Origin: Acidobacteriota bacterium
GTDB taxonomy: Bacteria; Acidobacteriota; Blastocatellia; Pyrinomonadales; Pyrinomonadaceae
Assembly (NCBI GenBank): GCA_046730815.1
Contig: JBKPJS010000581.1
Coordinates: forward strand, 1-29,847
Direction of reading: 5' to 3'
DNA length: 29,847 nt
A program made the position numbers and the translations under genes. Positions within the stretch are counted from its first letter, which is position 1, and the number at the start of each line of letters is the position of its first letter. Under the pieces are notes generated by a model. That model was not told where the DNA came from, made no database searches, and saw nothing but the letters and a program-made list of their open reading frames with translations. Positions 1,662 through 29,558 of the stretch are shown here, in pieces.

Positions 1662-1721
1662 GCCGCAGATGAACGCGGATGAACGTAGATTCATCTGCGT
1701 TCATCCGCGTTCATCTGCGGC
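1662..1721. repeat. Palindromic tandem-unit element, family A (CAGATGAACG-type unit)
   Basis: gccgcagatgaacgcggatgaacgtagat-tc-atctgcgttcatccgcgttcatctgcggc; 29-nt arms, 28/29 complementary; overlaps the stop of the PLP enzyme gene. Confidence 0.9.
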
Positions 1722-2666
1722 CAAAAGTTCTCGTAGCGAGTCAGGATCGATGTTGCCGCCGGACAGGACTACGCCAACACGGTTTACATCTGGGGGCAGC
1801 TTCTTAAACATCACGGCCGCCGCTGCGGTCGCGCCGGAGGTCTCGACCAGCAACTTCATGCGAAAGAGCAGGAAACGTAATGTCGCGACGATCTCTTCGT
1901 CGGACACTGTCAACACGTCCTCCGCCAGTCGCTGCACGATGGGAAAAGTGAGTTTGCCCGGTATTTGAACGCGCAGCCCGTCCGCGATAGTGGGCGGCGG
2001 TGGGATCGAAACGCGTTCGCCTTTCAAGAGCGATTGGCGCGTATCGTCGGCAGTAGCCGGCTCGACGGGAAAACATCGAATCTTCAAGTTCAAGGCTTTA
2101 GCCGCAGTGGCAACACCCGCAAACAACCCACCGCCACTGCAGGGCGCGAGCACACAGTCGAGGTCCGGCACTTCCTCAAGCAACTCGAGACCGCAGGTTC
2201 CCTGGCCCGCAAGTACGAAATAGTCATCGTAAGGCGGGACCATCACCAACCGTTCGCGCTCGGCGAGGTCTAGCGCAAACGCTTCGCGATCTTGTTTGTG
2301 GCGATCGTAAAAGACGATGTCGGCACCGTAGCCACGCGTCGCGGCAACCTTCGCCGCCGGCGCGTCTTCAGGCATTGCGACTAAAACTCGAACGCCCGCT
2401 TCGCGTCCGGCAAGCGCGACAGCTTGCGCGTGATTGCCCGATGAAAAAGCGACGATGCCTTGGTGCTTTTCCGCTGTCGTTAGCGACTGGATTTTATTGG
2501 TGGCGCCGCGAATCTTGAACGCGCCGGCGCGTTGGAAGTTTTCGCACTTGAAGAAGACTTCCTTTCCGGCCGCCTCGTTGAACTGCCGAGAAGTTAGAAC
2601 TGGCGTGCGATGAATGCGCGAACCGATTCGTTCACGCGCTTCCTGGATCATGTCGATGTTAAGCAT
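1701..2666 (-). CDS. PLP-dependent serine/threonine dehydratase or racemase (fold type II, no ACT domain)
   Basis: AGAFKIRGA (PLP lysine), FSSGNHAQ, APCSGGGL, LSGGNID. Start moved to ATG 2666 (MLNIDMIQ), directly after the lipB stop at 2668. Confidence 0.92.
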   Translation of the reverse strand: MLNIDMIQEARERIGSRIHRTPVLTSRQFNEAAGKEVFFKCENFQRAGAFKIRGATNKIQSLTTAEKHQGIVAFSSGNHAQAVALAGREAGVRVLVAMPEDAPAAKVAATRGYGADIVFYDRHKQDREAFALDLAERERLVMVPPYDDYFVLAGQGTCGLELLEEVPDLDCVLAPCSGGGLFAGVATAAKALNLKIRCFPVEPATADDTRQSLLKGERVSIPPPPTIADGLRVQIPGKLTFPIVQRLAEDVLTVSDEEIVATLRFLLFRMKLLVETSGATAAAAVMFKKLPPDVNRVGVVLSGGNIDPDSLRELLAADERG

Positions 2667-2667
2667 A

Positions 2668-3339
2668 TTAGCCACAGATGAACGCCGATAAAGACTGATA
2701 AGAAAAAACTTCGGAGAAGTGGTCCACGATGCGATCTTCGACCGCACTCAATTTAGTCTCGTGGCCCAGCAACTCCTCCATTGAAGTCACCGGCTCGCCT
2801 TCACAGGCGATTATGAGATCGAAGTAGCTGAGATCTGTGTTTACGTTCAAAGCAAAGCCGTGAGTTGTAACCCAGCGCGCGATGTGCACGCCAATCGCCG
2901 CGACTTTGCCGCGTTGGGTATGAACGCCGGTCAAGCCTTCGATGCGAAAGGCTTCGATATCAAAATCCGACATTGTGCGAATCAAAACTTCTTCCAGATC
3001 GCGCACGTAGCGGTGGACGTCTTCGCGATCGGGGCTGAGGTTGATGATCGGATAGCCGACCACCTGGCCCAGGCCGTGATAGGTCACTTTTCCACCGCGG
3101 TTTGTTTCAAATAGGGTGACGTTCCTCTTTTGCAGTCCCTCTGTGTCGAGCAGGACTGCTGAGCTGTCGCCGCGACGTCCGATGGTTAGCGTGTGGGGGT
3201 GTTCGAGCAGCAGAAGTGTATCGGGCTGAGTGCCGGCCTTTACGGCCGCTTCGGTATGTTTCTGGATCGCAAGCGCTGATTCATAATCGACCAGCCCTAA
3301 TTGTTGGACCAACAGCTTCCTTGCGTTCATTGACATCAT
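2668..3339 (-). CDS. lipB: Octanoyl/lipoyl transferase
   Basis: LEHPHTLTIGRR, RGGKVTYHGLGQVVGYPI, KVAAIGVH, HGFALNV, IIAC motifs. Start could be ATG 3339, 3336 or 3330. Confidence 0.95.
   Translation of the reverse strand: MMSMNARKLLVQQLGLVDYESALAIQKHTEAAVKAGTQPDTLLLLEHPHTLTIGRRGDSSAVLLDTEGLQKRNVTLFETNRGGKVTYHGLGQVVGYPIINLSPDREDVHRYVRDLEEVLIRTMSDFDIEAFRIEGLTGVHTQRGKVAAIGVHIARWVTTHGFALNVNTDLSYFDLIIACEGEPVTSMEELLGHETKLSAVEDRIVDHFSEVFSYQSLSAFICG
2671..2699. repeat. Single arm (half element) of family A
   Basis: gccacagatgaacgccgataaagactgat; lies inside the last codons of lipB. Confidence 0.7.
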
Positions 3340-3366
3340 GCAACCAGATCGCGGGCTTTCGGCGTC

Positions 3367-3375
3367 ATTCTAACA
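3367..3375 (-). promoter_or_regulatory. Extended -10 promoter for lipB operon (TGtTAGAAT)
   Basis: Plus-strand attctaaca = TG-T-TAGAAT on the minus strand, about 28 nt upstream of lipB. Confidence 0.55.
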
Positions 3376-3389
3376 GCCGCGTTGGTCTC

Positions 3390-3398
3390 TGGTACAAT
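3390..3398 (+). promoter_or_regulatory. Extended -10 promoter for the secreted hypothetical protein (TGgTACAAT)
   Basis: TG-G-TACAAT about 57 nt upstream of the proposed TTG start. Confidence 0.55.
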
Positions 3399-3455
3399 TA
3401 CCCGCCTCAAAAGAGGGACGCAATTGGAATTGAAAACATGAAGAGGAGAAACAAC

Positions 3456-3974
3456 TTGAAACCCATCGCAACCGTTTTACTGACAGTAATTCTTTTCGCT
3501 CCCTCTACAGCGCTCTCGCAAACACGGGGCCGGTCAACCAGGCCGAAACCGGCCGCTGCGAAAACACCACCTGTATCTCAGGTGCGGACCACGGGCGCCA
3601 CGCGAGTCGCTGAACAAATCAAGCTTTTGACCCAGTTTATTTACGTGCTTGGTAAAGTGACGAGTAGCATTGCGGCAGCCGACGAAGCTGCGCGTAGAAA
3701 TGAGGCATCACCCACCGTGCTGCAACAAACCCAGCAGAGCAAGACGCGGCTCAGAACCACCATTCAGGATGTTCGTGAGGGGCTCGATAAATTGGAGATC
3801 GATTTTCGCGCGACGCCTGAACTCCAGCCGTTCTACATCAAACTCGCCGGGGTAGCGGCGGGCGCCGCAACCGCTGAGGAGCAGGCAGCCGCTAATCAAT
3901 TCGACGCCGCTGGTCGAACACTGCTCAACGTGATCAATCGATTAGCAGATGTGCTGGTCGTGATGAGGCAATAG
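3456..3974 (+). CDS. Secreted hypothetical protein, predicted all-alpha
   Basis: GAGGAG (3443-3448) sits 7 nt before an in-frame TTG; N-terminus KPIATVLLTVILFAPSTALS-Q looks like a signal peptide, followed by a basic/Pro linker and amphipathic helices. ATG 3438 is the alternative start. Confidence 0.75.
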   Translation: MKPIATVLLTVILFAPSTALSQTRGRSTRPKPAAAKTPPVSQVRTTGATRVAEQIKLLTQFIYVLGKVTSSIAAADEAARRNEASPTVLQQTQQSKTRLRTTIQDVREGLDKLEIDFRATPELQPFYIKLAGVAAGAATAEEQAAANQFDAAGRTLLNVINRLADVLVVMRQ

Positions 3975-3978
3975 AGAG

Positions 3979-4029
3979 CATTGCCAATTGTCCATTTCCA
4001 ATTGCCAATTTAATCGGCAATCGGCAATG
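3979..4029. repeat. Palindromic tandem-unit element, family E (ATTGCC(A/G) 7-mer)
   Basis: attgcca-attgtcc-atttcca-attgcca followed by inverted aatcggc-aatcggc-aatg, between convergent genes. Confidence 0.7.
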
Positions 4030-4036
4030 ATCAGTC

Positions 4037-5161
4037 TTACTGCTTCTTCGGATAGTAACCCTGGCGGGCGCGGACGCGCACGTCATTGCGCGCCGGAACA
4101 GCAACCTGAATTCGCCTGAACACAGCCGGAGGAGCGTCCGAATTGCCGTAGTATTGAAGCAGGTATTGCCCTCGCAACTCTGCCGCGACCTGTCGAAACA
4201 CCCGCTGGAGATCCTGATCGGAATCCGGAACGAACGCCGTGCCGCCCGTAGTCTCCGCGATCGCTTCCATACCGCTCTCAGCCCGCATCGCGATCTGATT
4301 CAACTTCACTGATGGACCACCCGGATTCACCGAATAGAAAATCACGTCCGCCTTCTGCACTTCCTTCTGAACTTCCTGGACCGCGCGCCGGTGACGTTCC
4401 TGCAAACCCGCCCGCGTGCTGGAAAACGTTTGCTGCCCATTTTGCGCCGCCCGCGCTTCTGCGATCGACAAGTCGCGAATCTGTGTGCTGAAGTTATCGT
4501 CACCATCCGATAGCACAACGATGACTCGCCGGTAATTGCTCGGGGCACTATCCGTCAAATACTTTGCCGCAGCTATTACAGTGTCGTAGAACGATGTCGG
4601 CACAGGACCGGTCGCCGCTGGAATCGTCAACATCTTTGCGGCTGACGTTTCGGCTGAGGCGAGCGGCTGGATCATTGTCGCTTTGTCAGTGATGGTAAAT
4701 ATGGCAGCCTTGTCAGCCGGCTTCATCACCAGCTTGAGAAACGTCGCAGCCGCGTTCTGCTGCGACGCAAAAAAGCCTTTTTGACTAGTGCTGCTCGAGA
4801 TGTCAAACAGCAACGCAATCGCCAAAGGCACTTGCTCGGGATCACCAATTCCGGAAATCTCCTGTTGCTTGCCTTCCTCCAACAGGCGGAAATCAGCAAC
4901 CTGAAGTCCCTGAACAGCCTGGCCCTGCTGATCAGTTACTGACACCGGCACCATCACCAGATTTGACGTGACCTTAACAACGTCGAGCACTTCCTGTTCA
5001 GGCGGCTTCGGCGTTGGCGTCGGTTTGGCTTTCCAAGGCGGAGGCGGGGCCGGCATCTCTTTGACTGTTTGCCCCTGCACAATCGGTGTAGACAGAAAAA
5101 TGGCCAGCACTCCAATCAGGAACGCCGGCCACAAAAGTTTTTTCTCAACCCCCAGAATCAT
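4037..5161 (-). CDS. Acidobacteria-type VWA domain protein, exported
   Basis: Signal peptide, Pro-rich linker, VMVPVSVTDQQG, F.L.EEGKQQEI, MIDAS LFDISSS ... T ... SDGDDN, ETTGG, LRGQYLLQY, VRVRARQGYY. Confidence 0.9.
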   Translation of the reverse strand: MILGVEKKLLWPAFLIGVLAIFLSTPIVQGQTVKEMPAPPPPWKAKPTPTPKPPEQEVLDVVKVTSNLVMVPVSVTDQQGQAVQGLQVADFRLLEEGKQQEISGIGDPEQVPLAIALLFDISSSTSQKGFFASQQNAAATFLKLVMKPADKAAIFTITDKATMIQPLASAETSAAKMLTIPAATGPVPTSFYDTVIAAAKYLTDSAPSNYRRVIVVLSDGDDNFSTQIRDLSIAEARAAQNGQQTFSSTRAGLQERHRRAVQEVQKEVQKADVIFYSVNPGGPSVKLNQIAMRAESGMEAIAETTGGTAFVPDSDQDLQRVFRQVAAELRGQYLLQYYGNSDAPPAVFRRIQVAVPARNDVRVRARQGYYPKKQ

Positions 5162-5163
5162 CT

Positions 5164-5262: not shown

Positions 5263-5272
5263 CGTCACATTC

Positions 5273-5298
5273 GCGGAGTTGCACCAGCAGGACTCCGC
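5273..5298 (-). terminator. Hairpin after ompA-like gene (possible terminator or stabiliser)
   Basis: gcggagt/actccgc 7-bp stem with inner tgc/gca; no U-tract on the minus strand. Confidence 0.35.
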
Positions 5299-6583: not shown

Positions 6584-6649
6584 TCGCGCAAAGACGCAAA
6601 GACGGCAAAGAATTCATTGATCCTTTGCCGTCTTTGCGCCTTTACGTGA
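6584..6649. repeat. Palindromic tandem-unit element, family C (GCAAAGAC unit)
   Basis: tcgcgcaaagacgcaaagacggcaaag-12 nt-ctttgccgtctttgcgcctttacgtga, 6 nt downstream of the E2 stop. Confidence 0.85.
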
Positions 6650-8062: not shown

Positions 8063-8089
8063 CTGTTCTCCGTCTCAATCCAAAATCAG

Positions 8090-8157
8090 TTTTACAGGAT
8101 GTACATGATTAATAGGATTATCATGTAAATCAGGTCTAATCCTGTAATCCTGTAAAA
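8090..8157. repeat. Palindromic tandem-unit element, family D (ACAGGATT unit)
   Basis: ttttacaggat-gtacatgat-taataggat followed by atcatgta...atcctgta-atcctgtaaaa, between E1-beta and E2. Confidence 0.8.
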
Positions 8158-9196: not shown

Positions 9197-9634
9197 TTAA
9201 ATACTCAGGCTGACTTGTTTAATCTTGGACGTTGCAATGTTCGGCGATTTTGGATTTACCACGAGCTTTTCGCGTGTCGGGTCTATGACTACGTCGAGAC
9301 CTTCCAGCGGAATTGCACCTAACAAGATCTCTTCAGCACCTGGCAAAAGGATAGCCTTTACGATCGTACTCCGGTTTTCGAAACGAACCTCCACAGGACC
9401 AACCATGTCGACTTGCCGCTGTGTCTCATCGGCCAACCATATAGTTCGCTGATGAAGAACAGGCAACTTAAGTTGTTGCTGGACCTCTTCGTTTATAACA
9501 AGGTCCAAGGCGCCGCTGTCGACTAATGCGTTAATAGTAATTCTTCGAATCTCGTTTTCAGGCAGACTCCCGCGTCGAGTAAAAGCGAGATCATCTCCAT
9601 TTAGCAGCTCAATTTCCGCATACACCAATCCCAT
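9197..9634 (-). CDS. Clan AA (retropepsin-like) aspartic protease, single domain
   Basis: GLVYAEIELLN, ALVDSGA (D-S-G catalytic motif), GPVEVRF, ILLGAIPLEGLDVVIDP. ATG 9634 preceded by GGAGG-AAAAGGA. Confidence 0.85.
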   Translation of the reverse strand: MGLVYAEIELLNGDDLAFTRRGSLPENEIRRITINALVDSGALDLVINEEVQQQLKLPVLHQRTIWLADETQRQVDMVGPVEVRFENRSTIVKAILLPGAEEILLGAIPLEGLDVVIDPTREKLVVNPKSPNIATSKIKQVSLSI

Positions 9635-9703
9635 TCCTTTTCCTCCGGTAAGTGAGGTACCTTCGGTACGTCTATATTTATGGCTCATTGGAAAAACCAT
9701 AGT

Positions 9704-10852: not shown

Positions 10853-10859
10853 TTGAGAA

Positions 10860-10914
10860 CCATCCACAGATTACACAGAAATTCTTTTTACATATCTGCG
10901 TAATCTGTGGATGG
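10860..10914. repeat. Palindromic tandem-unit element, family A variant
   Basis: ccatccacagattacacaga-spacer-tctgcgtaatctgtggatgg between lpdA and E1-alpha. Confidence 0.8.
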
Positions 10915-10919
10915 CTCTT

Positions 10920-12377: not shown

Positions 12378-12406
12378 ATTATAAACAAAGCCACAAAGAC
12401 GCACAA
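12378..12406 (-). promoter_or_regulatory. Sigma70-type promoter for lpdA operon: TTGTGC-N17-TATAAT
   Basis: Perfect TATAAT at 12383-12378, exactly 17 nt from TTGTGC at 12406-12401. Confidence 0.65.
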
Positions 12407-12418
12407 AAGGCACAAAAA
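12390..12418. repeat. Single arm (half element) of family B (CACAAA unit)
   Basis: gccacaaagac-gcacaaaag-gcacaaaaa. Confidence 0.75.
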
Positions 12419-12444
12419 GGGCGCGCTCGGTAAAGAGCACGCCC
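12413..12444 (-). terminator. Intrinsic terminator of TonB-dependent receptor 1
   Basis: GGGCGUGCUC-uuuacc-GAGCGCGCCC followed by UUUUUG on the minus strand. Confidence 0.8.
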
Positions 12445-15958: not shown

Positions 15959-16006
15959 GCCGCAAAGAAACACAAAGGCACAAAACATTTTGTGCTTCTT
16001 CGTGGC
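15959..16006. repeat. Palindromic tandem-unit element, family B
   Basis: gccgcaaagaaacacaaaggcacaaaa ... ttttgtgcttcttcgtggc, directly after the paralog 2 terminator. Confidence 0.75.
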
Positions 16007-19397: not shown

Positions 19398-19455
19398 CAG
19401 AGATTGAGTCAGATGAAAGCCAGGCCTGGGGGCCAATTAGCGTTCATTTGAATTT

Positions 19456-19471
19456 CGCAATAGTTGTGCCG
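19456..19471 (-). promoter_or_regulatory. Sigma54 -24/-12 promoter for receptor 2
   Basis: CGGCAC-AACTA-TTGCG, matching YGGCAC-N5-TTGC with exact GG-N10-GC spacing, 87 nt upstream of the ATG. Confidence 0.7.
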
Positions 19472-19597
19472 GATAAAGCTTTTGATCGCCTCGCTTAACG
19501 AAAGCGATGTGTGCCAATAGTTAACTCCTGGAGAGAGGTGAAGGCCCCGGCAGAACCTGCACAAGAATTTGGATTTAATCTAAAAATCGGGAAAAAC

Positions 19598-19664
19598 GAG
19601 CCGCAGATTTACGCAGAATACCGCAGATCGGATCTGATCTGCGTCGTCCGTAAATCTGCGGCTC
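19598..19664. repeat. Palindromic tandem-unit element, family A
   Basis: gagccgcagatttacgcagaataccgcagat ... atctgcgtcgtccgtaaatctgcggctc, 7 nt after the thiolase stop. Confidence 0.88.
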
Positions 19665-19671
19665 CTGTCTT

Positions 19672-20853
19672 TCACACTCGCTCGACGATCATCGCAATGC
19701 CCTGCCCGCCACCGATGCACGCAGTCGCCAAACCGTAATGTTTTCCGCGACGATGAAGTTCATGCAACACAGTCAACACCAGGCGAGTGCCAGTCGCTCC
19801 TAGCGGATGGCCGAGCGCGATCGCGCCACCGTTGACGTTCGTGCGGCTGCGGTCGAGTCCCAACTCCTTCTCGACTGCCAAATACTGTCCGGCAAAAGCC
19901 TCGTTTACTTCGATCAGGTCGATGTCGTTAAGCGATAAACCCGCCTTTGCAAGCGCCGCACGAGTCGCGGGAACAGGTCCGATGCCCATGATCTCCGGTT
20001 CAACTCCCGCGTAAGCCCAACTCACGATCCGGCCCATCGGAGTAAGGTCTTTCTCCTTCATAAACTCCTCTCCGGCAATCACAAGAGCTGCCGCACCGTC
20101 GACAATCCCGGAAGCATTCCCCGCAGTGACAAAACCATCCCGGGCAAACGCCGGTTTCAGTTTAGCCAAACCTTCGAGCGTGGTCTCCGGTCGTGGATGA
20201 TCGTCCTCATTCACTTGAACGGTGCCTTTACGCGTCTCCACTTCCACCGGAACGATCTCTTGAGCAAAAAAGCCGGCATCTTTAGCGCGCTTCGTCTCCT
20301 GCTGGGATCGTAGTGCGTACTTGTCCTGTTCCTCGCGCGAAATCTCGAATTTGCGCGCCAGGTTTTCCGCGGTTCCAGCCATCGGTGTGTTGCAGTAAGT
20401 ATCTAGCAGCGCAACCATCAAACTATCTTCGAGTTTGCCCTGGCCTAACGCGAAGCCCGATCGCGCTCCACGGATAACATGTGGCGCTTGCGACATCGAT
20501 TCCATGCCACCAACCAAACAAGTCCGCGCTTCGCCGAGCTGAATCATGTGCGCGCCTGAAACGATCGACTGAATGCCACTGCCGCAGAGTCGATTAACCG
20601 TCAGTGCCGGACGATCGAAAGGCACACCAGCCCTCAACGCTACGTGACGAGCTCCATAAATCGCGTCGCCGGAAGTTTGCAATGCATTCCCAATTACAGT
20701 GTGATCGATTTCGTCAGCGTTAACACCGGTTGCTTCCAGGGCGCCGCGTGCTGCGACTGCGCCGAGATCAATTGCCGATACGTCTTTCAGCGCGCCGACG
20801 TATTCACCCATCGGCGTGCGCTTACCTCCCAATATGAAAACGTCTTTACTCAT
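19672..20853 (-). CDS. Acetyl-CoA C-acyltransferase (thiolase)
   Basis: VNRLCGSG (nucleophile Cys), NEAF, GGAIALGHPLGATG, ACIGGGQG. Confidence 0.96.
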   Translation of the reverse strand: MSKDVFILGGKRTPMGEYVGALKDVSAIDLGAVAARGALEATGVNADEIDHTVIGNALQTSGDAIYGARHVALRAGVPFDRPALTVNRLCGSGIQSIVSGAHMIQLGEARTCLVGGMESMSQAPHVIRGARSGFALGQGKLEDSLMVALLDTYCNTPMAGTAENLARKFEISREEQDKYALRSQQETKRAKDAGFFAQEIVPVEVETRKGTVQVNEDDHPRPETTLEGLAKLKPAFARDGFVTAGNASGIVDGAAALVIAGEEFMKEKDLTPMGRIVSWAYAGVEPEIMGIGPVPATRAALAKAGLSLNDIDLIEVNEAFAGQYLAVEKELGLDRSRTNVNGGAIALGHPLGATGTRLVLTVLHELHRRGKHYGLATACIGGGQGIAMIVERV

Positions 20854-20932
20854 TCCGTAACCCCTGTTGTAAAAATCGCCTCAGTCGAAACCCTGAAGGC
20901 TAACAAACCCAAAATAGATCGTCAAATCACTC

Positions 20933-21739
20933 TCAATCCCGGAAGCGATGCTCTTGCAGGTAGCGGTGCAGTAGTTCCTCTAAGAAGCCTTCGTACGTGA
21001 AGGTGGCGAGGTCGTAGGCAGGTCGAATTTTATAAAGAATCGGCAGTGAGACTCGCCACGCCATCCACTGACGCGGCACATCAGACAGTTCCCAGCGACG
21101 ACGCAGAAATGTTTCTACTACCTGGATCTCCGGCTCGGTGAGCGTGCTCAAACTGGCAGTGAAGTTGACCGGCTTGAACGATCGACGAAGCGCCGGATCG
21201 CTCACGGGCGTGGCAAAGACTTGCGAGAACTCAGGCGCTTCTGCTTCGCGTTCACGAACAACAACCGTCCCAGCCACCATGTCGCCCACACGCTGATCGC
21301 GAGTTGTCGAGAAGACGCTGATCAAGCCGATCGAATAAAACGGAAACGGCATCATGTCGAAACTGCGCAGCAGGTTTCGTACTGATGCCTCCCAGAAAGT
21401 AATTGGGCGTCCATCCTCGCGAATCACACGTAACTTCAACCAGCGCTTGCCTGGAGTTTGTCCACTCCAAATCCATTCGAAGAATGCGAAGTAACCGGAG
21501 AACGTGAAAAACAGGAGCAGGATCATTACCGCATAGACCCACTTCGGCGCTGTCGACAGCGCTCGTTCGATGCTCGAATAGTTCGCCAGTATGATGGAGG
21601 CGACGGCGATGAGCGCCAACGAAAGTCCTTGAATCGTGTGGTCGATGGCACATGCCAGAAAGCGGTTTCCGATCGACGCCAGCGCAAAGTGCAAGGGCAC
21701 ACGCTCAGGCGTTTCGATGATCAGAATGTCTTCAGCCAT
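20933..21739 (-). CDS. RDD family membrane protein
   Basis: IETPERVPL.F.LASIGNRFLACAID, two hydrophobic segments, GQTPGKRWLKLRVIREDG, RNLLRSFD, QRVGDMVAGTVVV. Confidence 0.9.
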   Translation of the reverse strand: MAEDILIIETPERVPLHFALASIGNRFLACAIDHTIQGLSLALIAVASIILANYSSIERALSTAPKWVYAVMILLLFFTFSGYFAFFEWIWSGQTPGKRWLKLRVIREDGRPITFWEASVRNLLRSFDMMPFPFYSIGLISVFSTTRDQRVGDMVAGTVVVREREAEAPEFSQVFATPVSDPALRRSFKPVNFTASLSTLTEPEIQVVETFLRRRWELSDVPRQWMAWRVSLPILYKIRPAYDLATFTYEGFLEELLHRYLQEHRFRD

Positions 21740-21748
21740 CGGATCTTA

Positions 21749-21807
21749 GCCGCAGATGAACGCAGATGACGCAGATCAGATCGGCGTCATCTGCGTTCAT
21801 CTGCGGC
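21749..21807. repeat. Palindromic tandem-unit element, family A
   Basis: gccgcagatgaacgcagatgacgcagat ... gtcatctgcgttcatctgcggc; contains the tyrS stop. Confidence 0.88.
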
Positions 21808-23011
21808 CCTTCACGCGCATGAATTTACGCTTTCCAACCTGGATCAAGTACGACTGATCTGCACTGAAGCTGAGTTCAAAGTCAGTTTGGGTGCGCCGTT
21901 CACCTTCAACGTAAACTCCGCCTTGCTCGATCATTCGACGGGCTTCCGCCATCGATGAGACCAGACCTAGTTCAACCAGCAATCGCGGCAATTTCCAAAG
22001 TCCGGATTCCAAAGCTCGCTCCTCGATAACATCCGGTGCCTGCTTGTTCCGGAACATCGAATTGAACTCTTCTTCAGCCTTATGCGCCTCGGCGTCGGAA
22101 TAGAAGTCGGCGACGATCCGTTTGGCGAGGTCGGCCTTTATGTCGCGCGGGTTACGCTGACCTGCGTTGGCGCTTTCACGAAGCGAAGCTATCGCACTCG
22201 GCGAAAGATCGGTGCACAGCTCGTAATAACGCCACATCAGATCGTCGGAAATCGACATCACCTTGCCGAAGATCTCCTGCGGCGGCTCGCTGATGCCGAT
22301 GTAGTTTCCCAAACTCTTCGACATCTTCTGCACGCCGTCAGTTCCTTCCAACAGCGGCATGACCATCGCGACCTGCGACTCCTGCCCGTACTCTCTTTGC
22401 AGATTGCGGCCCATCAGCAAGTTGAACTTCTGATCCGTTCCGCCCAGCTCAACATCAGCCTCGAGCGCAACTGAGTCGTAAGCCATCACCAGCGGGTACA
22501 TAACTTCGTGCAGCGCGAGTGGTCGATTCGCTTCCAGTCGCTGTTGAAAATCGTCGCGTTCAAGAATCTGCCTCACGGTGACATGTGAAGAGAGTCGCAA
22601 AAAACCTGCCGAGCCCAGCGTGTTCATCCAATGAGAGTTGAATTCAATTACTGTCTTTTCCGGATCGAGCAGCTTGAAGATCTGCTGCCTGTACGTTTCG
22701 GCATTGGCCTCGATCTCTTCGCGAGTGAGTTGAGGTCGTGTGGCGTTCTTACCCGAAGGATCGCCAATCATTCCGGTGAAGTCGCCGATGAGAAAAATCG
22801 CCGTGTGGCCCAGCTCCTGGAATGCGCGAAGTTTGCGGATCACGACTGTGTGGCCCAGGTGGATGTCGGGCGCCGTCGGATCCGCGCCCAGCTTAACGCG
22901 CAAAGGCTTCCCGCTTGCGGCAGACTTCTCGAGCTTCGCGCGCAGCTCAGCTTCGCGAATGATTTCTACCGTGCCTTTGCCAAGGTATGAGAGCTGTTCG
23001 TCGAGGGTCAT
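21797..23011 (-). CDS. tyrS: Tyrosine--tRNA ligase with C-terminal S4 domain
   Basis: [13 protein letters not shown] (HIGH), [16 protein letters not shown] (KMSKS), QVGKRKF. Start moved to ATG 23011 (MTLDEQL) to avoid overlap with proC. Confidence 0.97.
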
Positions 23012-23059
23012 GACCCGATAGAGTAGCTCAACTGTTGAAGCGTGCGCTATCCTCATTTC

Positions 23060-23914
23060 ATGGTTGATAAAAACTCTCTAAGCAACTGTCGTTTAGCTTT
23101 CATCGGCTGCGGCGTGATGGCGGAAGCAATGATCGCCGGACTGCTGCGCCAGAAGATAGTTGGACCGGAACAAATCGTCGGCAGTCATCCCCGCCAGGCT
23201 CGTCTCGAAGAGATGCACGTCAAGTATGGCGTGGAAATGTTTGAACAGAACCGCGAGGCCGTGACCGAGACCCATCCAGAGGGACCGGATGATAGCTCCG
23301 TCGTCGTGCTTGCCATTAAGCCTCAGCGGCTGCATCGAGTGCTGGAAGAACTGAAGGGTTCGCTGGTGAAGGAGCAGCTCATCATTTCGATCGTCGCCGG
23401 CGCTAAGATTGCAACGATTGCCGAAGAGCTCTTACACGCGTCAGTGGTGCGCACGATGCCAAACACGCCGGCGCAGATTGGCGCAGGTATTACGGCGTGG
23501 ACCGCGAGCCCCGAAGTTAACGAGAAGCAGGAGGGTCAGGTTTGCGCGATATTCGACGCGCTAGGGAAAACTATTCACGTGGAGAATGAACGTCAGATCG
23601 ACATGGCGACAGCACTGAGCGCCACCGGGCCGACGTACATCTTCATGGTCATGGAAGCGCTCATCGATGCGGGAGTTCACCTTGGTTTTTCGCGGCACGT
23701 GGCCGAGGAGTTGGTCCATCAAACACTGCTGGGGTCTGTGTTATTCGCGAGGGAGTCGCACAAACATCCGGCGGAGCTGCGAAACATGGTTACTTCGCCG
23801 GGAGGGACGTCGGCCGAAGCGATCTATCAGATGGAGAAAGGCAGTTTGCGGACGATAATGTCGAAAGCTGTTTGGGCTGCTTTTCAACGTGCTGAGTCGC
23901 TGGGTAAAAATTGA
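23060..23914 (+). CDS. proC: Pyrroline-5-carboxylate reductase
   Basis: [43 protein letters not shown]. Start at ATG 23060. Confidence 0.96.
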
Positions 23915-23990
23915 GCCGCAGATTTACGCAGAAAAACGCTGATGAGACAAACTTCTGATCAGCGTTTTTCTGCGTAAATCTGCGGCTCAA
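23911..23990. repeat. Palindromic tandem-unit element, family A; probable bidirectional terminator
   Basis: 33-nt perfect arms ttgagccgcagatttacgcagaaaaacgctgat / atcagcgtttttctgcgtaaatctgcggctcaa around a 14-nt spacer; includes the stops of both convergent genes proC and purN. Confidence 0.92.
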
Positions 23991-24558
23991 TACTGCTTAA
24001 CACTAGGGCTACCGCCTCAGGGTAGAGTTTGTGTTCCTGTTCTAGTATTCGCGCCGAGAGCGTCTCCACAGTGTCGCCTTCCAAAACCGGCACCGTACGC
24101 TGCGCGATGATTGGACCACCGTCAAGCGTCTCATCTACAAAGTGGACAGTGCATCCACTCACTCTCGCGCCATGCTCGAGCGCCTGACGTTGCGCATCGA
24201 GTCCCGGGAAAGCAGGCAAAAGACTCGGGTGAATGTTGAGTATCCGTTTTTTGAACGCCTCGATGAAGCAGGGCGACAGGAAACGCATGTATCCCGCGAG
24301 GCACACAAGATCGACCTCGCGCTCGCGTAAGACTGAAATGATCTCGCGCTCATGCTCTTCGCGATTGCGCCCGTGGCGTTCGACGACACGAGTTTCGATT
24401 CCGCGTTCTTTCGCCAGTGCCAGCCCGCGAGCGTCAGGCTTGTCGCTGATTACGATGCCTATTTCTGCGTTTGGGATCTTGCCGGCGCCAACAGCGTCGC
24501 TTAGCGCAAGCATGTTTGACCCACGGCCGGAAATTAAAATTGCGATCCTCTTGTTCAG
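23959..24558 (-). CDS. purN: Phosphoribosylglycinamide formyltransferase
   Basis: IAILISGRGSN (upstream of the track ATG), LAGYMRFL, LNIHPSLLPAFPG, GCTVHFVDETLDGGPII, EH.LYP. Start assigned to CTG 24558 (see findings). Confidence 0.95.
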   Translation of the reverse strand: MNKRIAILISGRGSNMLALSDAVGAGKIPNAEIGIVISDKPDARGLALAKERGIETRVVERHGRNREEHEREIISVLREREVDLVCLAGYMRFLSPCFIEAFKKRILNIHPSLLPAFPGLDAQRQALEHGARVSGCTVHFVDETLDGGPIIAQRTVPVLEGDTVETLSARILEQEHKLYPEAVALVLSSIEPQIYAEKR

Positions 24559-25586
24559 ATCAATACCTCACGATTGCCAGTCTCTACATTTCCGATCGCG
24601 TAGCACTTTTCGCCATGGTCCTGAAGATGGCCCTGAATAGTTGTGGCATCACTGGGTGAGCAAACGATCACCATGCCGGCACCCATATTAAACGTGCGAT
24701 ACATCTCGTTGTCGGAAACGTTGCCGAGACGGCGCAGCAACTCGAATAGCGAAGGTATGGGCCATGAGCCGTTTTTAATCTTCACTGCCGTGCCTGTGGG
24801 AAGGATCCGCGGGATGTTGTCGGTCAGTCCACCACCCGTGATGTGCGCCAGGCCCTTGATCAAACCCTGATCGAGCAGACCATCGAGTGGTTTCAGATAA
24901 CTGAGATGCGGCAGCAGGAGCGCCTCACCAGCGGTCATTTGCAATTCAGGCAGGTGCGTATGAGGTTCATAGGCGGCAACCTCGAAAAACAGTTTGCGAG
25001 CGAGCGAGTATCCGTTAGTGTGTAGTCCGGCGGAAGGAAGGGCGAGCAAAACGTCTCCGGCAGCGATCGTCTTTCCGTCGATGATCTTTTCGCGATCGAC
25101 CACACCGACGATAAAACCTGCGATGTCGTATTCGCCGTCCTGGTAGAAACCCGGCATCTCCGCCGTTTCACCACCCAACAACACACAACCATTTTCACGG
25201 CAGCCATTCGTTACACCCTCGACGATGCTCGCAACCACGTCAGGCGACAACTTTCCGGTCGCGATGTAATCGAGAAAGAAGAGCGGGCGCGCGCCCTGGA
25301 CCAGGATGTCGTTGACGCAATGATTGACGAGGTCACCACCGACGGTGTTGTGTACGCCCGTGGCAAAAGCGATCTTGAGCTTGGTGCCGACGCCGTCCGC
25401 TGACGCGACGAGCACCGGCTGCTTCAGCGTCGGGAACGCGCCGTCGAACATTCCACCAAAGCTTCCGATTTCGGAAAGCGTGCGCTCGTTGAAGGTCCTG
25501 CGCGCCAGCTCTTTGATCTTGTCGGTAGCTCGCGTCGCGGCATCGATATCCACGCCCGCATCGCTGTATGAAACTGGTTTTTGCAT
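24555..25586 (-). CDS. purM: Phosphoribosylformylglycinamidine cyclo-ligase (AIR synthetase)
   Basis: SYSDAGVDID, DGVGTKL, GGETAEMPG, GLHTNGYSL, HITGGG, TFNMG. Start at ATG 25586. Confidence 0.97.
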   Translation of the reverse strand: MQKPVSYSDAGVDIDAATRATDKIKELARRTFNERTLSEIGSFGGMFDGAFPTLKQPVLVASADGVGTKLKIAFATGVHNTVGGDLVNHCVNDILVQGARPLFFLDYIATGKLSPDVVASIVEGVTNGCRENGCVLLGGETAEMPGFYQDGEYDIAGFIVGVVDREKIIDGKTIAAGDVLLALPSAGLHTNGYSLARKLFFEVAAYEPHTHLPELQMTAGEALLLPHLSYLKPLDGLLDQGLIKGLAHITGGGLTDNIPRILPTGTAVKIKNGSWPIPSLFELLRRLGNVSDNEMYRTFNMGAGMVIVCSPSDATTIQGHLQDHGEKCYAIGNVETGNREVLI

Positions 25587-25595
25587 GCTTTGAGT

Positions 25596-25672
25596 ATCTG
25601 TAAATCTTGCCAATCTTGAAATCCTGTCAACTCTTTTTGACAGGATTACAGGATTTGCAGGATTTACAAGAT
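25596..25672. repeat. Palindromic tandem-unit element, family D, arms in opposite order to 8090-8157
   Basis: atctgtaa-atcttgcca-atcttgaa-atcctgtcaa ... ttgacaggatt-acaggattt-gcaggattt-acaagat. Confidence 0.85.
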
Positions 25673-25676
25673 ACGT

Positions 25677-26816
25677 TCACTTCTGCTCAGTCTTCTTCGA
25701 CGCGCGTGGTGGTGGACCGAAGTCGCCGTAAGCAATGAAACCTGAACGAGATGAATCATCCTTCTGCGCGATGCGGCCGGCCCAAAGATCTTCGGTGCTT
25801 TCTTTCGCCGTCTTGACAGTCATCTCGTTGTTTTTTCCGCGTGTCGTGATCGTTATCTCCCCCTGCAAGTCAGTTCGATAGAGTTTCACGTTTGCAGCAC
25901 GCAGCCGATCGAGCACAGCCTGTGACGGATGCCCATAACGGTTCCACGCGCCACACGACACAATTGCAATCTCAGGTTTGACGCGATTCAGAAAATCACC
26001 CGACGAGGCGTATTTTGAACCGTGGTGAGAGACCTTCAACACACGAGCTTGCAGATCAATCTCCTTCGTCAGCAACCGATGTTCGGTCTGGTCTTCAGCA
26101 TCGCCTGCCAGCAACATCGAAAACGAACCATAATCTAAACGAGCCACGATCGAGTTTGCGTTCGCCTCGTTCCCGCCCGTACTCATTTTATCTTTCGTAA
26201 AGAACGGCTCTGACGGCGCGAGGATCGTCAACAGAGCGCCGCCGCCGAGATCGTACTTCGTTCCCGGCCTGGCGTTTTCATAACGAGCGCCACTCGCGTT
26301 CAACGCCGCTTTGTAATCGTCGTAGAACTTGGTAAGTGAAGCCGGTTGATTCGATCTTCTGGTTGCCGGTTTCTTCGCACCAGTAGTTTGCTTTTGCGTG
26401 GCTGCAAGTTCGGGAGGAACACTTGGCGCCTGACCGTTATCGATTACATTCAACACTTTTACGGCCTTGAAAACTTCAGCAGCTCCACCGATGTGATCCG
26501 GATGCGGATGCGTGGCGATGAAGTAGTCGAGCTGCTGAACGTTGTTACGCTTCAACGCTTCGACTACAGTCTTGCCTTTCGTCGTATCGCCCGCGTCAAT
26601 GAGTACAGTTTTTCCGGAAGGTGAGGAGATGAGTATCGAATCGCCATTAATTGGACCAACGTCGAGAATGCGAACCGTCAACTCGCCGCCCGATGCCGGC
26701 GGTGGCTGGCTTTTCCACCACGGATAGACGTACTTCCACCCGGCATAGCCACCAAGCAAGGCTACTACTAAAAGAACTGCAACCGCACAACCACAGCCTC
26801 GGGTAGCTCGTCCCAA
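25677..26816 (-). CDS. Membrane-anchored ComEC/Rec2-type metallo-beta-lactamase-fold hydrolase
   Basis: N-terminal hydrophobic anchor; LDVG..GDSILI, LIDAG, THPHPDHIGG (HxHxDH), LLAGDAE, LKVSHHGS, NRYGHP, YRTDLQGEI. No ComEC channel domain. TTG start after GAGG. Confidence 0.9.
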   Translation of the reverse strand: MGRATRGCGCAVAVLLVVALLGGYAGWKYVYPWWKSQPPPASGGELTVRILDVGPINGDSILISSPSGKTVLIDAGDTTKGKTVVEALKRNNVQQLDYFIATHPHPDHIGGAAEVFKAVKVLNVIDNGQAPSVPPELAATQKQTTGAKKPATRRSNQPASLTKFYDDYKAALNASGARYENARPGTKYDLGGGALLTILAPSEPFFTKDKMSTGGNEANANSIVARLDYGSFSMLLAGDAEDQTEHRLLTKEIDLQARVLKVSHHGSKYASSGDFLNRVKPEIAIVSCGAWNRYGHPSQAVLDRLRAANVKLYRTDLQGEITITTRGKNNEMTVKTAKESTEDLWAGRIAQKDDSSRSGFIAYGDFGPPPRASKKTEQK

Positions 26817-26990
26817 TCAACGCCTCGTTATCTACGGTCTTAAAGGTCTTAAAAGAACGCGCGGCCAGACGTGAGGAGCATCAACCTGGTTAGTCACGCA
26901 TGCTTCGTGAACGCTCAATGGCAGATCGAGAACCTGAAAGACCTCGACGCTGAGATCGTTCGTTTGTAAGGGCTTTGCTCCAATATTTGA

Positions 26991-27051
26991 GCCACAAAGA
27001 AGCACCAAAAGCACAATAAATTTAACGAAGAAATTTGTGCTTGTTTGTGGC
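26991..27051. repeat. Palindromic tandem-unit element, family B
   Basis: gccacaaagaagcaccaaaagcacaa ... ttgtgcttgtttgtggc, 18 nt after the purF stop. Confidence 0.8.
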
Positions 27052-27069
27052 AATTTTCCTAAAAACATA

Positions 27070-28494
27070 TCAGCTCTCAGCAGTCACCGATTCATGCTCG
27101 CGCTCCCACATCGTCTCAGCCTCTCTCGTGATGGGCGTCGGGTATTGTTCGTTCCAGCAAGCGACGCAAGACGCATCCGCGCTCAAACCTGTCGCTGCGA
27201 TCATTCCCTCGAGCGATAAGTAACCCAGCGAGTCGGCCTCTATATATTCTTTTATCTGTTCCACGCTCTTCTGCGCCGCAATCAACTCCGACTTGTTCGG
27301 CGTATCGACGCCGTAATAGCACGGACTGATCGTCGGCGGACAACTGATACGCACGTGAATCTCCTTCGCGCCCGCCTCGCGAACCATGCGTACGATCTTT
27401 TTCGAAGTCGTGCCACGCACGATCGAATCGTCTATCAAGACCACGCGCTTGCCGTTTATTAGATCCCGCACTGGATTGAGTTTGATTCGCACTCCGAAGG
27501 AACGAATCGATTGCCGCGGCTCGATGAACGTGCGTCCAACATAGTGGTTCCGAACCAGACCAAAACGAAAACTCAAACCACTCTCCGCCGCATAACCGAT
27601 CGCAGCAGCGACGCCCGAGTCGGGCACTGGAACTACGAGGTCAGCATCCGCAGGCTGCTCGACTGCAAGACGCCGGCCCATCTTGTGTCGCGACTCGTTG
27701 ATCGACTTGCCGTAGATCAAAGAGTCCGGTCGCGCAAAATAAACATGTTCAAATAGACACATCGAATGCTTCTGCTCCGGCAACGGATGCGATGAACGCA
27801 AACCCTCCCGATCGATCACGATCATCTCGCCAGGCTCGATGTCGCGCACGTACTGCGCGTCAATCAGATCAAACGCGCACGTCTCGGAAGCAACGACCCA
27901 CGCGTCGCCGAGCCGCCCTAACGCGAGCGGGCGAAAGCCGCGACTGTCGCGAATCGCAATTAGCTCCGACGGCGTAAGAAAGAGCATTGAAAACGCGCCT
28001 TCAGTCTCGCTCAGCACCTGCGGGATTGCTTCTCTGACTGTCAGGCGCGAGCGTGCGACACCATGAAGCACGACTTCCGTGTCGGAAGTCGAAGAGAAGA
28101 TTGCGCCGTCGCGTTCGAGTCGTTGTCGTTCTTCGCGTGCGAACGGAAGATTTCCGTTGTGGCAAACTGCGATCTGTCCGTGCTGGCAAGTCACGAGGAA
28201 CGGTTGCGCCTCAAGAATCGAGACTTCGCCGGCAGTCGAATACCGCACATGTCCGATGGCGCTCGAGCCGCGCAAACGATCCAACGTAGCTTGATCGAAT
28301 GATTCGGAGACGTGACCCATCGCACGTTCGAGACGCAGTTCGGCGCCATCGGAAGCGACGATGCCGCACGATTCCTGCCCGCGATGCTGGAGCGCGTACA
28401 AACCGAGGTAAGTCAACCGGGCGGCGTCGGGATGTCCGTAGATTCCGAAAACCCCACACTCTTCATGCAGCTTGTCGATCTCGATTTCAGTCAA
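27070..28494 (-). CDS. purF: Amidophosphoribosyltransferase, propeptide-containing [4Fe-4S] type
   Basis: HEE-CGVFG (Ntn nucleophile), QHRGQE, GHVRYST, HNGN, DDSIVRGTT, Cys at MCLFE, ISCPP..SPCYYG, CVAC. TTG 28494 after AGGA gives a 12-residue propeptide, close to the 11-residue Bacillus subtilis propeptide. Confidence 0.97.
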   Translation of the reverse strand: MTEIEIDKLHEECGVFGIYGHPDAARLTYLGLYALQHRGQESCGIVASDGAELRLERAMGHVSESFDQATLDRLRGSSAIGHVRYSTAGEVSILEAQPFLVTCQHGQIAVCHNGNLPFAREERQRLERDGAIFSSTSDTEVVLHGVARSRLTVREAIPQVLSETEGAFSMLFLTPSELIAIRDSRGFRPLALGRLGDAWVVASETCAFDLIDAQYVRDIEPGEMIVIDREGLRSSHPLPEQKHSMCLFEHVYFARPDSLIYGKSINESRHKMGRRLAVEQPADADLVVPVPDSGVAAAIGYAAESGLSFRFGLVRNHYVGRTFIEPRQSIRSFGVRIKLNPVRDLINGKRVVLIDDSIVRGTTSKKIVRMVREAGAKEIHVRISCPPTISPCYYGVDTPNKSELIAAQKSVEQIKEYIEADSLGYLSLEGMIAATGLSADASCVACWNEQYPTPITREAETMWEREHESVTAES

Positions 28495-28534
28495 TTGAGT
28501 TGTCCTGATTTGGCGACTGGGGATTACGCGCTTA

Positions 28535-28563
28535 ATCATAACCACTAAGACACAAAGGCACAA
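28535..28563 (-). promoter_or_regulatory. purF promoter candidate TTGTGC-N17-TATGAT
   Basis: Left arm of the palindrome read on the minus strand. Confidence 0.6.
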
Positions 28564-28589
28564 AGTAAAACACCAAAATGAATGTTACT

Positions 28590-28618
28590 TTGTGTCTTGG
28601 CGTCGTGGTGGTTATGAT
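28590..28618 (+). promoter_or_regulatory. Cytochrome c promoter candidate TTGTGT-N17-TATGAT
   Basis: Right arm of the palindrome; GTG start lies 6 nt after the -10 hexamer. Confidence 0.6.
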
Positions 28619-28624
28619 TGCACC

Positions 28625-28969
28625 GTGATTCGCGGCCTTTCAATAGCGTTCTTTATCGTTGGTGGCCTGTCGCCGTTTGCGATCGCCGGCGACAACGCCC
28701 GCCCCGCGTCGCAGTTATATCGACGTCATTGCGTCTCCTGTCACGGCAACGATGGCCGGGCAAAGACTTCGAAGGGAAAGTTTAGCCATGCGCGCGACCT
28801 TTCCGATGCTCAGTGGCAGGAGGAGGTCAGCGACGAACGCATCTTCAACTCGATCATGAATGGACGAAACGTACGCGGCAACATGCCGGCGTTTGCCGAC
28901 AAGCTTAACCAAAACGAGGCCGAATCGCTGGTAGATTTTGTGCGCCGGCTGAAGCGTAACGGGCAGTAG
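28625..28969 (+). CDS. Periplasmic class I monoheme cytochrome c
   Basis: Signal-like N-terminus, LYRRHCVSCHGNDG (CxxCH), I.NG...NMPAF (distal Met). The track start (28592) is inside the repeat; GTG 28625 preferred. Confidence 0.88.
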   Translation: MIRGLSIAFFIVGGLSPFAIAGDNARPASQLYRRHCVSCHGNDGRAKTSKGKFSHARDLSDAQWQEEVSDERIFNSIMNGRNVRGNMPAFADKLNQNEAESLVDFVRRLKRNGQ

Positions 28970-28975
28970 CAATTC

Positions 28976-29500
28976 ATGTTTTTCAAGCGTATCTCCGCAC
29001 TGAAATCTGCCGTCACATTTCGCGGTGTCGTGATTGCTGCTTTGCAAGTGGGGCTGATTCTTTTGCTTGCCGGCGCCGGATGGATGATTTATCGACAACT
29101 TCCCGCCGGCGGCTCTGACGTCGCAAATCAAAGAACGACGACTTTACAGATCGTGATTCGGCAAGCCCCGGAAACTGTCGGTCCGTCACTGGACGTGGCT
29201 GTGAGTCTTTATCCGGTCGACATCGTCGCGGTGCGACACGAGTTCTTTACCGAGCCGCGCGCCGGCAAACGCTTTGAAGATTTTCTCAAGGAGCGAATGA
29301 GGGGCCGGTCGCCGGTTAACGCGCGCCTTGACAAACAGGGACACGGCGCGGTGATGCTTGCGCCGGGCAGTTGGTGGCTGCACGCCACCCTCTCGGGCGA
29401 CGAACAACTCGAGTGGCGCTTGCCGGTAACAGTAGGAGGCGCCAGACAGATCGTCGAACTCACGCCGCAGAATGCGTACACGAGAAGTAAGACCTTCTGA
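28976..29500 (+). CDS. Hypothetical membrane-anchored protein
   Basis: 174-aa ORF 6 nt after the cytochrome stop; one hydrophobic segment (VVIAALQVGLILLLAGAGWMIY) then a beta-rich domain. Confidence 0.75.
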   Translation: MFFKRISALKSAVTFRGVVIAALQVGLILLLAGAGWMIYRQLPAGGSDVANQRTTTLQIVIRQAPETVGPSLDVAVSLYPVDIVAVRHEFFTEPRAGKRFEDFLKERMRGRSPVNARLDKQGHGAVMLAPGSWWLHATLSGDEQLEWRLPVTVGGARQIVELTPQNAYTRSKTF

Positions 29501-29558
29501 GCCGCAGATGAACGCGCATAAATGCAGATCGGCGTTATCCGCGTTCATCTGCGGCTCA
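29498..29558. repeat. Palindromic tandem-unit element, family A
   Basis: tgagccgcagatgaacgcg ... cgcgttcatctgcggctca; begins with the stop codon of 28976-29500. Confidence 0.88.

Follow-up and report, generated by a model that had tools for sequence, protein, structure and literature searches.

Tandem-word palindromes at the gene junctions of a soil Acidobacteriota genome and their possible relation to genes of the GxxExxY nuclease family

Contig JBKPJS010000581.1 of an Acidobacteriota bacterium (Pyrinomonadaceae; assembly GCA_046730815.1) carries housekeeping genes, among them a cluster for lipoate and 2-oxoacid dehydrogenase functions, two TonB-type receptor genes, a thiolase gene, tyrS, proC and purNM, and most of their junctions hold palindromic elements whose arms consist of short words repeated in tandem. 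The stretch analysed, hereafter the window, comprises 29,847 nt and is contig C581 of a soil metagenome-assembled genome (MAG) of 4.68 Mb in 802 contigs, 87% complete and with 54% G+C. The best-matching relatives of its tyrS belong to Pyrinomonadaceae (Blastocatellia). A reading of the letters alone (the original prediction) had listed 15 such elements at gene boundaries and had suggested that they might be the empty form of an element that carries a gene as cargo. Here, we describe these elements, their copies in the genome and in its relatives, and their association with genes of the GxxExxY family (PF13366/TIGR04256), which encode small proteins assigned by profile to the PD-(D/E)xK nucleases. 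Our analysis suggests that the elements of the window are gene-less members of a palindromic repeat population that turns over rapidly and that may be run by such a nuclease.

Palindromes at the gene junctions of the window

All 15 elements are present, as 13 palindromes and two lone arms, and all of them lie at gene boundaries once over-extended starts of open reading frames (ORFs) are allowed for. A repeat finder and Tandem Repeats Finder recovered the palindromes with tandem-unit arms at 1662, 6584, 8087, 10856, 19598, 21749, 23910, 25599, 28534 and 29498, and the three palindromes that are gapped or asymmetric (3979, 15959 and 26991) were confirmed by reading the sequence, as were the two lone arms (2671 and 12390). 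The window contains nine ungapped hairpins with arms of at least 16 nt, compared with a mean of 0.22 and a maximum of two in 100 first-order Markov shuffles. In DNA folding, 11 of the 13 palindromes reach z-scores between -5.3 and -16.1, the other two being the gapped or asymmetric ones at 3979 and 15959. The density of elements is higher in the window than the genome average.

At the left end, an A2 palindrome of CGCAGATGAA units with 29-nt arms and a 2-nt loop (1662..1721; z -13.0) contains in its right arm the stop codon of a PALP (cysteine-synthase-like) gene. A lone family-A arm (GCCACAGATGAACGCCGAT..., 2671..2702, plus strand), established by sequence reading, abuts the lipB stop codon, and its partner arm is absent. 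Between two convergent ORF ends lies a family E palindrome of 7-nt ATTGCCR units with unequal arms (3979..4029; z -2.7). Three elements accompany the 2-oxoacid dehydrogenase genes: a B2-like palindrome of CGCAAAGA units directly downstream of the E2 acyltransferase gene (6584..6649; z -8.7), a family D palindrome of ACAGGATT units with the E2 start on one side and the E1-beta stop on the other (8087..8152; z -6.3), and an A1 palindrome that has the CCATCCACAGATTACACAGA terminus and separates the E1-alpha start from the lpdA stop (10856..10918; z -9.5). Further along, a lone family-B arm (GCCACAAAG..., 12390..12420, plus strand) is followed by a separate G+C-rich hairpin, and a family B palindrome whose right arm is one unit short (15959..16006; z -2.5) stands between the two TonB-type receptor genes.

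The right half of the window is of the same kind. An A2 palindrome with the GAGCCGCAGATTTACG terminus lies downstream of the thiolase gene (19598..19664; z -8.7), and another, between the start of the RDD gene and tyrS, holds the tyrS stop codon in its right arm (21749..21807; z -14.2). The A2 palindrome with the lowest z-score (23910..23991; 38-nt arms; z -16.1) contains the stop codons of the convergent genes proC and purN, one in each arm. A family D palindrome separates the purM start from the stop codon of the upstream gene (25599..25668; z -8.8), and it is followed by a B1 palindrome with the GCCACAAAGAAGCAC terminus and a 31-nt loop (26991..27051; z -5.3), a family B variant palindrome (ACCACTAAGACACAAAGGCACAAAG, 28534..28619; z -7.5) and an A2 palindrome with the TGAGCCGCAGATGAACGCG terminus (29498..29558; z -8.6).

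A genome-wide population of several word families

The view that these elements belong to a dispersed multi-family repeat system was borne out by our genome-wide scan, which found 1173 hairpins with arms of at least 14 nt and 959 with arms of at least 16 nt, in at least seven word families. At the latter threshold, family A (A1, CCATCCACAGATTACACAGA; A2, GCCGCAGATGAACGC) accounts for 370 hairpins, family B (B1, GCCACAAAGAAGCACAAA; B2, CGCAAAGGCGCAAAG) for 182, family D (ACAGGATT) for 135, family E (ATTGCCR, with a 7-nt period) for 53 and family G (CACAGAG) for 25. An arm is composed of a conserved outer terminus followed by two to four tandem words of 7-10 nt, the two arms being inverted to each other, and sequence conservation declines from the outer terminus toward the loop. 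The common termini that had been noticed in the window are real and abundant, with 360 arms genome-wide for GCCGCAGAT, 551 for TCCACAGAT, 269 for GCCACAAAG and 390 for GACAGGATT, and A1 is the commonest family (551 termini). The word GCCGCAGATGAACGC occurs 92 times where 0.01 occurrences are expected, and identical 20-mer termini are shared by up to 84 arms, the figure reached by the terminus of the A1 palindrome at 10856..10918.

The arms of one copy had been thought more alike than the arms of different copies. This holds for A2 (0.83 versus 0.74) but not for D, B1 and A1 by the measure used. The polarity of the hairpins is nearly fixed: in families A, B, D and E the purine-word arm almost always comes first, and in family G the order is always the reverse (18 to 0).

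A few repeats of other build were seen in the same genome. Family F, of the classical GTAG-headed type known from repetitive extragenic palindromic (REP) sequences, has 41 copies, none of them in the window; these are inverted doublets of the form TTGTAGGGG(C/T)GGCCCTCCGTGGCC... placed 15-35 nt apart (for example C763:6926, C272:4039 and C236:1908). A further palindromic family without tandem words, with ...ACCGAGCGCGGTAGCGCCGGGT... as its recognizable part, has ~16 copies (for example C692:3409, C65:723 and C528:1921). One family-B hairpin (C288:2466-2684) has a loop enlarged to 176 nt by ~8 tandem copies of a ~21-nt unit resembling TTGAAGAAGTCAGACGATTCA.

Placement and turnover at orthologous junctions

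With long ORFs taken as proxy genes, by which ~91% of the genome is coding, more than 90% of the elements are intergenic. Genome-wide they occupy 32% of the convergent, 16% of the tandem and 14% of the divergent junctions; the median distance between the edge of an element and the preceding stop codon is 0.5-8 nt, and this stop is often inside the element. This placement would suit structures that selection maintains for the benefit of the host, such as factor-independent or bidirectional terminators, stabilizers of mRNA 3' ends or insulators within operons, the link to GxxExxY genes then being incidental. Consistent with such a role, near-identical strains represented by contigs of four other soil studies have the elements of the window in place, five of them spanned without a gap, and no presence/absence variant was seen, so that the elements appear fixed at strain scale; the listed joints of short metagenome contigs on the window look like repeat-induced cross-matches. 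However, the canonical terminator had to be rejected, as at least five T residues within the 8 nt after the hairpin were found in only 9-14% of the copies of A, B and D and in 0-5% of those of E and G. Selection on the transcribed strand was not apparent either, G.U-type and A.C-type mismatches at co-directional junctions numbering 202 and 170 (p = 0.11, not significant); the mismatches are mostly A/G word variants mixed across the two arms. Moreover, divergent junctions, where promoters are located, are occupied too. Among public sequencing runs, no RNA run held the window, which was found only in runs of soil-metagenome DNA.

A sharper view came from seven orthologous junctions of the window (19400-26900) that we located in 29 genomes of the same genus. 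The state of a site varies across these genomes: it may be empty, hold a remnant or be occupied by a different family. At the proC/purN junction, A2 in the present genome is replaced by D in five genomes, by A1 in two and by a TATAGGAC-type repeat in one, and one genome has nothing there. The family D element at the purM junction is shared with one other genome, whereas a reversed B type is present in one, a TCGTAAA-type repeat in four and no element in two (G044 and G046). In G046, the spacer from stop to start at this empty site is 4 nt. The rdd/tyrS junction likewise shows full, half, remnant and empty states among the relatives. In two genomes (L037 and L043), proC reads through into the element and ends at a stop codon in the far arm, and host ORFs that end inside arms imply that the elements encode short C-terminal tails of housekeeping proteins.

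The size of the families changes as fast as their location. Counted as arm or pattern matches rather than whole hairpins, the arms among close relatives range from 21 to 789 for E, from 45 to 620 for A1 and from 60 to 641 for D, that is, up to 37-fold; a pattern search for the CACGAAA family at a 9-nt period missed the 10-11-nt arms of the loci that were to be compared. Thus, presence/absence differences and family replacement between close relatives are abundant. A junction that is empty in close relatives, even between translationally coupled genes that are 4 nt apart, and families that take each other's place at a junction and grow up to 37-fold do not fit structures retained for a host function, and we consider that explanation quite improbable.

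These comparisons also bear on the notion that the copies of the window are the empty form of a cargo-carrying element, which was not supported. The orthologous sites are mostly empty or occupied by other gene-less families, and identical 20-mer termini recur in up to 84 arms; for these two reasons, the copies of the window most likely spread as gene-less units rather than by loss of cargo at each site.

Three observations concern the same junctions or the same families. Besides the two proC genes, the present genome itself has a host ORF without a stop of its own that runs into an inserted hairpin and ends in its arm (C152:3577-3813, L097). The repeat type with TATAGGAC/GTCCTATA words, found at the proC/purN junction of G042 (L032), is also seen at the rdd/tyrS junction of G012 (L060), and TATAGGAC has 45 sites in the present genome. 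In G007 (C1:922000-925000, L099), family E hairpins lie at three successive junctions around tadA and a gene that, as judged by eye, resembles a tRNA gene, a case of one family densely saturating a region in a relative.

GxxExxY genes lie between or beside the same arms

The original prediction had proposed that, in other genomes, similar repeats flank small GxxExxY and four-helix-bundle genes. For GxxExxY this proved right. We found genes of this family, in one to seven copies, in 36 of the 41 genomes searched (40 relatives and the present MAG), and each of the 45 loci read in relatives has tandem-word arms within ~130 nt. The gene is enclosed by the arms at 32 of these loci and has an adjacent arm or hairpin at the other 13. 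None of our conclusions depends on G048 or G054, two unpublished genomes. Enclosure occurs in both hairpin polarities, and at some loci (L021) the gene is flanked by two whole palindromes that are mutually inverted. Several loci are orthologous across the genus, such as the site between an FAD-oxidase gene and aroC in five genomes, which indicates that the genes are inherited vertically.

The present genome contains two PF13366/GxxExxY genes. The first (C67:6714-7010) is enclosed by lone family-A arms 381 nt apart; this A2 copy is decayed, being frameshifted and without a start, and it is the sole gene-sized filling among ~470 arm pairs, whose other gaps measure 0-80 nt. A search for other cargo between split arms of the present genome yielded only this copy, the tandem-array loop on C288 and a duplicated B element on C300. 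The second gene, at C243:391-765, is intact, and directly upstream of it stands a whole family-D palindrome.

The arms of each gene belong to a defined word family. The pairing is one to one in the close relatives with the best assemblies. In G046, six GxxExxY paralogs have arms of A1, A2, B1, B2, D and G, one word family each, which match six of the seven families of the present genome; G044 (two contigs, 97% complete) has four paralogs. The same arm words bracket a PF13366 gene for A1, A2, B1, B2, D and G, and for E no such gene was found in the genomes searched. On a tree of 32 proteins, the word class of the arms changes eight times, compared with 17.5 times for shuffled labels, and none of 200 shuffles gave so low a value. 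In addition, G-type proteins have CACAGAG-type arms at different loci in several bacterial families of the class. Orthologous cassettes, on the other hand, share their arms by descent, and the clustering on the tree therefore overstates the independence of the pairings.

Four loci with cassettes in G044 or G046 were also compared with the present genome. None has the gene here: a remnant A1 arm accompanies a full B1 hairpin at the A1 site, lone arms of B1 and A mark the aroC site and the second G site, respectively, and at the B1 site the upstream ORF now reads into a full D hairpin. Neighbouring E arms of G007 were considered as a possible cassette of that family and were rejected, since they are ordinary hairpins at successive gene junctions.

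Several paralogs (L077, L079, L080, L083, L089, L092, L027 and C243) share a leader with a CCTCAC motif (ACCTCACRRGGAG...CCTCACATG) between the upstream arm and the start codon, which may be a common expression or regulatory signal of the cassette.

For the four-helix-bundle genes (PF05635), the proposed link stood only in part. Up to 19 copies are present in a relative, and each of the 16 loci that we read has its gene between arms of 7-nt words in inverted orientation. These words (such as AGTGAnn, CGTGAAT, CAGTGGG and GTAGAAA) nevertheless form a class distinct from the families of the window, and neither PF05635 genes nor arrays of these words were found in the present genome. The genes and their word class are thus absent together here, in parallel to the pairing seen for GxxExxY.

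A stem of two long inverted arms with a small ORF in its loop is also the build of the ORF-bearing intervening sequences (IVS) of 23S rRNA in Coxiella and Leptospira (S23p/PF05635; PMC4990558), the closest described arrangement that we found; it recurs at C67 and at the 32 enclosed loci, and the relatives have PF05635 genes outside rRNA with tandem-word arms. RNase III excision has been demonstrated for the Coxiella IVS, and an origin as a selfish element was proposed long ago (PMC4990558). By analogy, the arms might pair in the transcript and be cut by RNase III, which would release a GxxExxY message or remove the hairpin, and gene-less copies would be those that have lost the gene. The shared architecture, the similarly built four-helix-bundle genes and the CCTCAC...ATG leader conserved inside cassettes agree with this idea. 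However, the hairpin copies all lie between protein-coding genes and not at helix 25/45 of 23S rRNA, the position of the IVS; the cargo is a nuclease and not a four-helix bundle; and no signal at the RNA level was found, the mismatches carrying no strand-specific G.U signal. Almost all copies are gene-less (~900, compared with two genes), relatives have at the orthologous sites either nothing or other gene-less families and not genes, and the termini identical in up to 84 arms suggest that it was the gene-less form that was amplified. We therefore judge a cassette acting at the RNA level to be very improbable.

A putative nuclease-driven repeat system

The GxxExxY protein is ~125 amino acids long. 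The product of the intact gene on C243 matches TIGR04256 (E 4.8e-37) and PF13366 (E 2.4e-37) above the profile cut-offs. Both the GxxExxY motif and the D...ExK motif are present, and G24, E27, D66, E76 and K78 do not vary among 38 GxxExxY sequences. A survey of PD-(D/E)xK proteins gives the function of the family as 'Unknown' (PMC3424549), and in the library searched, where three papers name GxxExxY and one names PDDEXK_3, we found no paper that links either to repeats and none that describes a system of hairpins and GxxExxY genes. None of the solved structures matches the family by sequence, and a protein atlas yielded no named neighbour. The GxxExxY profile touches only structures of phage endonuclease I (PDB 1m0d and 3cae), with hmmsearch E-values of 0.8-1.8 that are below significance; hhalign with T7 gene 3 gave a probability of 48% and a pairwise E-value of 2e-4 over 77 columns that include D...ExK. 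T7 endonuclease I is a junction-resolving PD-(D/E)xK enzyme whose D...ExK core can thus be aligned with that of GxxExxY, a likeness that may reflect only the common fold. An enzyme that cuts cruciforms would suit palindromic substrates, and we treat this likeness as a lead only.

Taken with the turnover and with the pairing of paralogs and words, these features suggest that the window elements belong, as gene-less copies, to a palindromic repeat population that is mobile or at any rate turns over rapidly, in a system run by a PD-(D/E)xK nuclease and comparable to that of REPINs, the mobile REP doublets, and their REP-associated tyrosine transposases (RAYTs). We assign this reading a probability of about one half. 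According to it, a GxxExxY nuclease would recognize, in hairpin or cruciform DNA, the words repeated in the hairpins of its own family and would cut at these places; the cuts would cause gene-less hairpins to be copied, excised or replaced in trans, and selection would spare only the copies wedged exactly between genes. Each paralog is paired with a word family of its own and occupies a fixed locus that is passed on vertically. Both the action of the nuclease on the arms and the dependence of the gene-less copies on it are what we infer from these associations.

Abundance in relatives gives some indication of such a dependence. Among five genomes, the highest A1 count belongs to the only one with an A1 gene, and the highest D counts belong to genomes with a D gene or a freshly broken copy. 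These peaks fit a slow decay of the families after loss of the gene, and they fall short of proving that the families depend on it.

A number of results weigh against a population run by the nuclease. The elements are fixed among near-identical strains, as described above, and the comparison of filled and empty sites disclosed no intermediate of excision or insertion; nor did the filled-versus-empty alignments show any direct repeat as a target-site duplication, although a palindromic TA would hide inside the inverted ends. The present genome has only one intact GxxExxY gene, the arms of orthologous cassettes are shared by descent, and A1 is the commonest family here although the orthologous A1 cassette site has no gene. 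In G044, 334 A1 and 204 D arms coexist with no A1 or D gene. Family E, with 789 pattern matches in G046 and 330 in G007, is one for which no GxxExxY or four-helix-bundle gene with E arms was found, and it is the commonest family in G046, a genome that lacks PF05635 altogether.

Part of this evidence favours the opposite order of events, in which the hairpins came first and spread without GxxExxY, by host replication and repair or by an unidentified enzyme, and the GxxExxY gene is a selfish passenger or homing-type gene that settled in their loops and has been inherited with the local hairpin. Family E would then thrive without an associated gene, as observed, and A1 and D could remain abundant and well conserved in genomes without theirs. 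The presence of the gene in loops of both polarities, or merely beside whole hairpins, and the decay of several copies (C67 and L084) are also in line with a passenger. On the other hand, the genes stay at the same orthologous loci throughout the genus and show no sign of hopping, and the match between protein clade and word class extends to loci that are not orthologous and belong to different bacterial families, whereas a promiscuous homing gene should produce no correlation between word and protein. Furthermore, the invariant catalytic residues suggest a maintained function. A passenger origin of the gene thus seems unlikely to us.

A more specific form of the nuclease-driven reading, in which a second, HUH-independent kind of REPIN-like system has the GxxExxY proteins as its enzymes, with paralogs that recognize their own word, cut hairpin or cruciform DNA and copy or swap gene-less hairpins at gene boundaries, is proposed tentatively, its chances falling a little short of even. 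If it were true, the system would fill at least a fifth of the intergenic DNA in these Acidobacteriota and the GxxExxY family would gain a function. A functional pairing would represent a new partnership of enzyme and repeat comparable to REPIN-RAYT, would account for much of the DNA between genes, for stop codons and protein tails encoded by elements and for a good deal of the fragmentation of soil Acidobacteriota assemblies, and would offer natural nucleases with short, programmable-looking word specificities.

Comparison with other repeat classes

The elements resemble the REP sequences and REPINs of Proteobacteria in being short extragenic palindromes with hundreds of copies and several families per genome (PMC3733652, PMC8266576 and PMC8049555). 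As in REPIN-RAYT systems, a gene that is inherited vertically in low copy number has its own repeat family on its flanks, and the repeat populations differ between close relatives. However, a REP is a single imperfect palindrome, in contrast to arms made of tandem 7-10-nt words, and the GTAG or CGTC head is absent. The REP survey of Di Nocera et al. knows GTAG and CGTC types only, and neither tetranucleotide was found at the element ends of the window families. The termini are instead GCCGCAGAT, TCCACAGAT, GCCACAAAG, GACAGGATT and ATTGCC; only the separate family F has the GTAG head, so the absence of the classical REP layout from the window was correctly noted. As to a transposase, no Y1/RAYT (PF01797) match was obtained in the whole assembly (87% complete). 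The partner is a ~125-amino-acid PD-(D/E)xK nuclease and not an HUH tyrosine transposase, and its gene often lies inside the hairpin loop, unlike RAYT genes, which lie between two REPINs. A search of Rfam up to an E-value of 1 gave only spurious matches of long hairpins to microRNA precursors.

Miniature inverted-repeat transposable elements (MITEs), such as Correia/NEMIS, RUP and Nezha, are small, non-autonomous, intergenic elements with inverted ends that are polymorphic between strains, and some of them supply stop codons or gene termini. The present elements share the small size, the intergenic location, the terminal inverted repeats, here in the form of inverted arms with conserved outer termini, and in some copies the supply of stop codons. 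No target-site duplication was seen, with the reservation given above for a palindromic TA. The elements differ from MITEs in that the ends abut as one tandem-word hairpin and there is no parent insertion sequence with a DDE transposase, the only enclosed gene in the present genome being that of the 125-amino-acid nuclease. The short tandemly repeated repetitive (STRR) sequences of cyanobacteria are tandem heptamer arrays in intergenic DNA that are not described as paired inverted arms with a gene. The 7-nt period of family E and of the four-helix-bundle arms recalls them, a likeness that goes no further than this general description of STRR.

Finally, two minor features of the assembly and of the window were recorded. 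Nextera-type adapter sequence appears many times in the MAG contigs (20-mers GGGCTCGGAGATGTGTATAA, TCTCCGAGCCCACGAGACAT and ACATCTGACGCTGCCGACGA occur 27, 16 and 13 times), and poly-C/G runs are frequent (poly-C 50 times), which indicates that the assembly carries sequencing artefacts, probably near contig ends. Between the E1-alpha and E1-beta genes of the window, an ORF at 9197-9700 encodes a retropepsin-like aspartyl protease, as judged from weak matches to PF13650 and PF13975.

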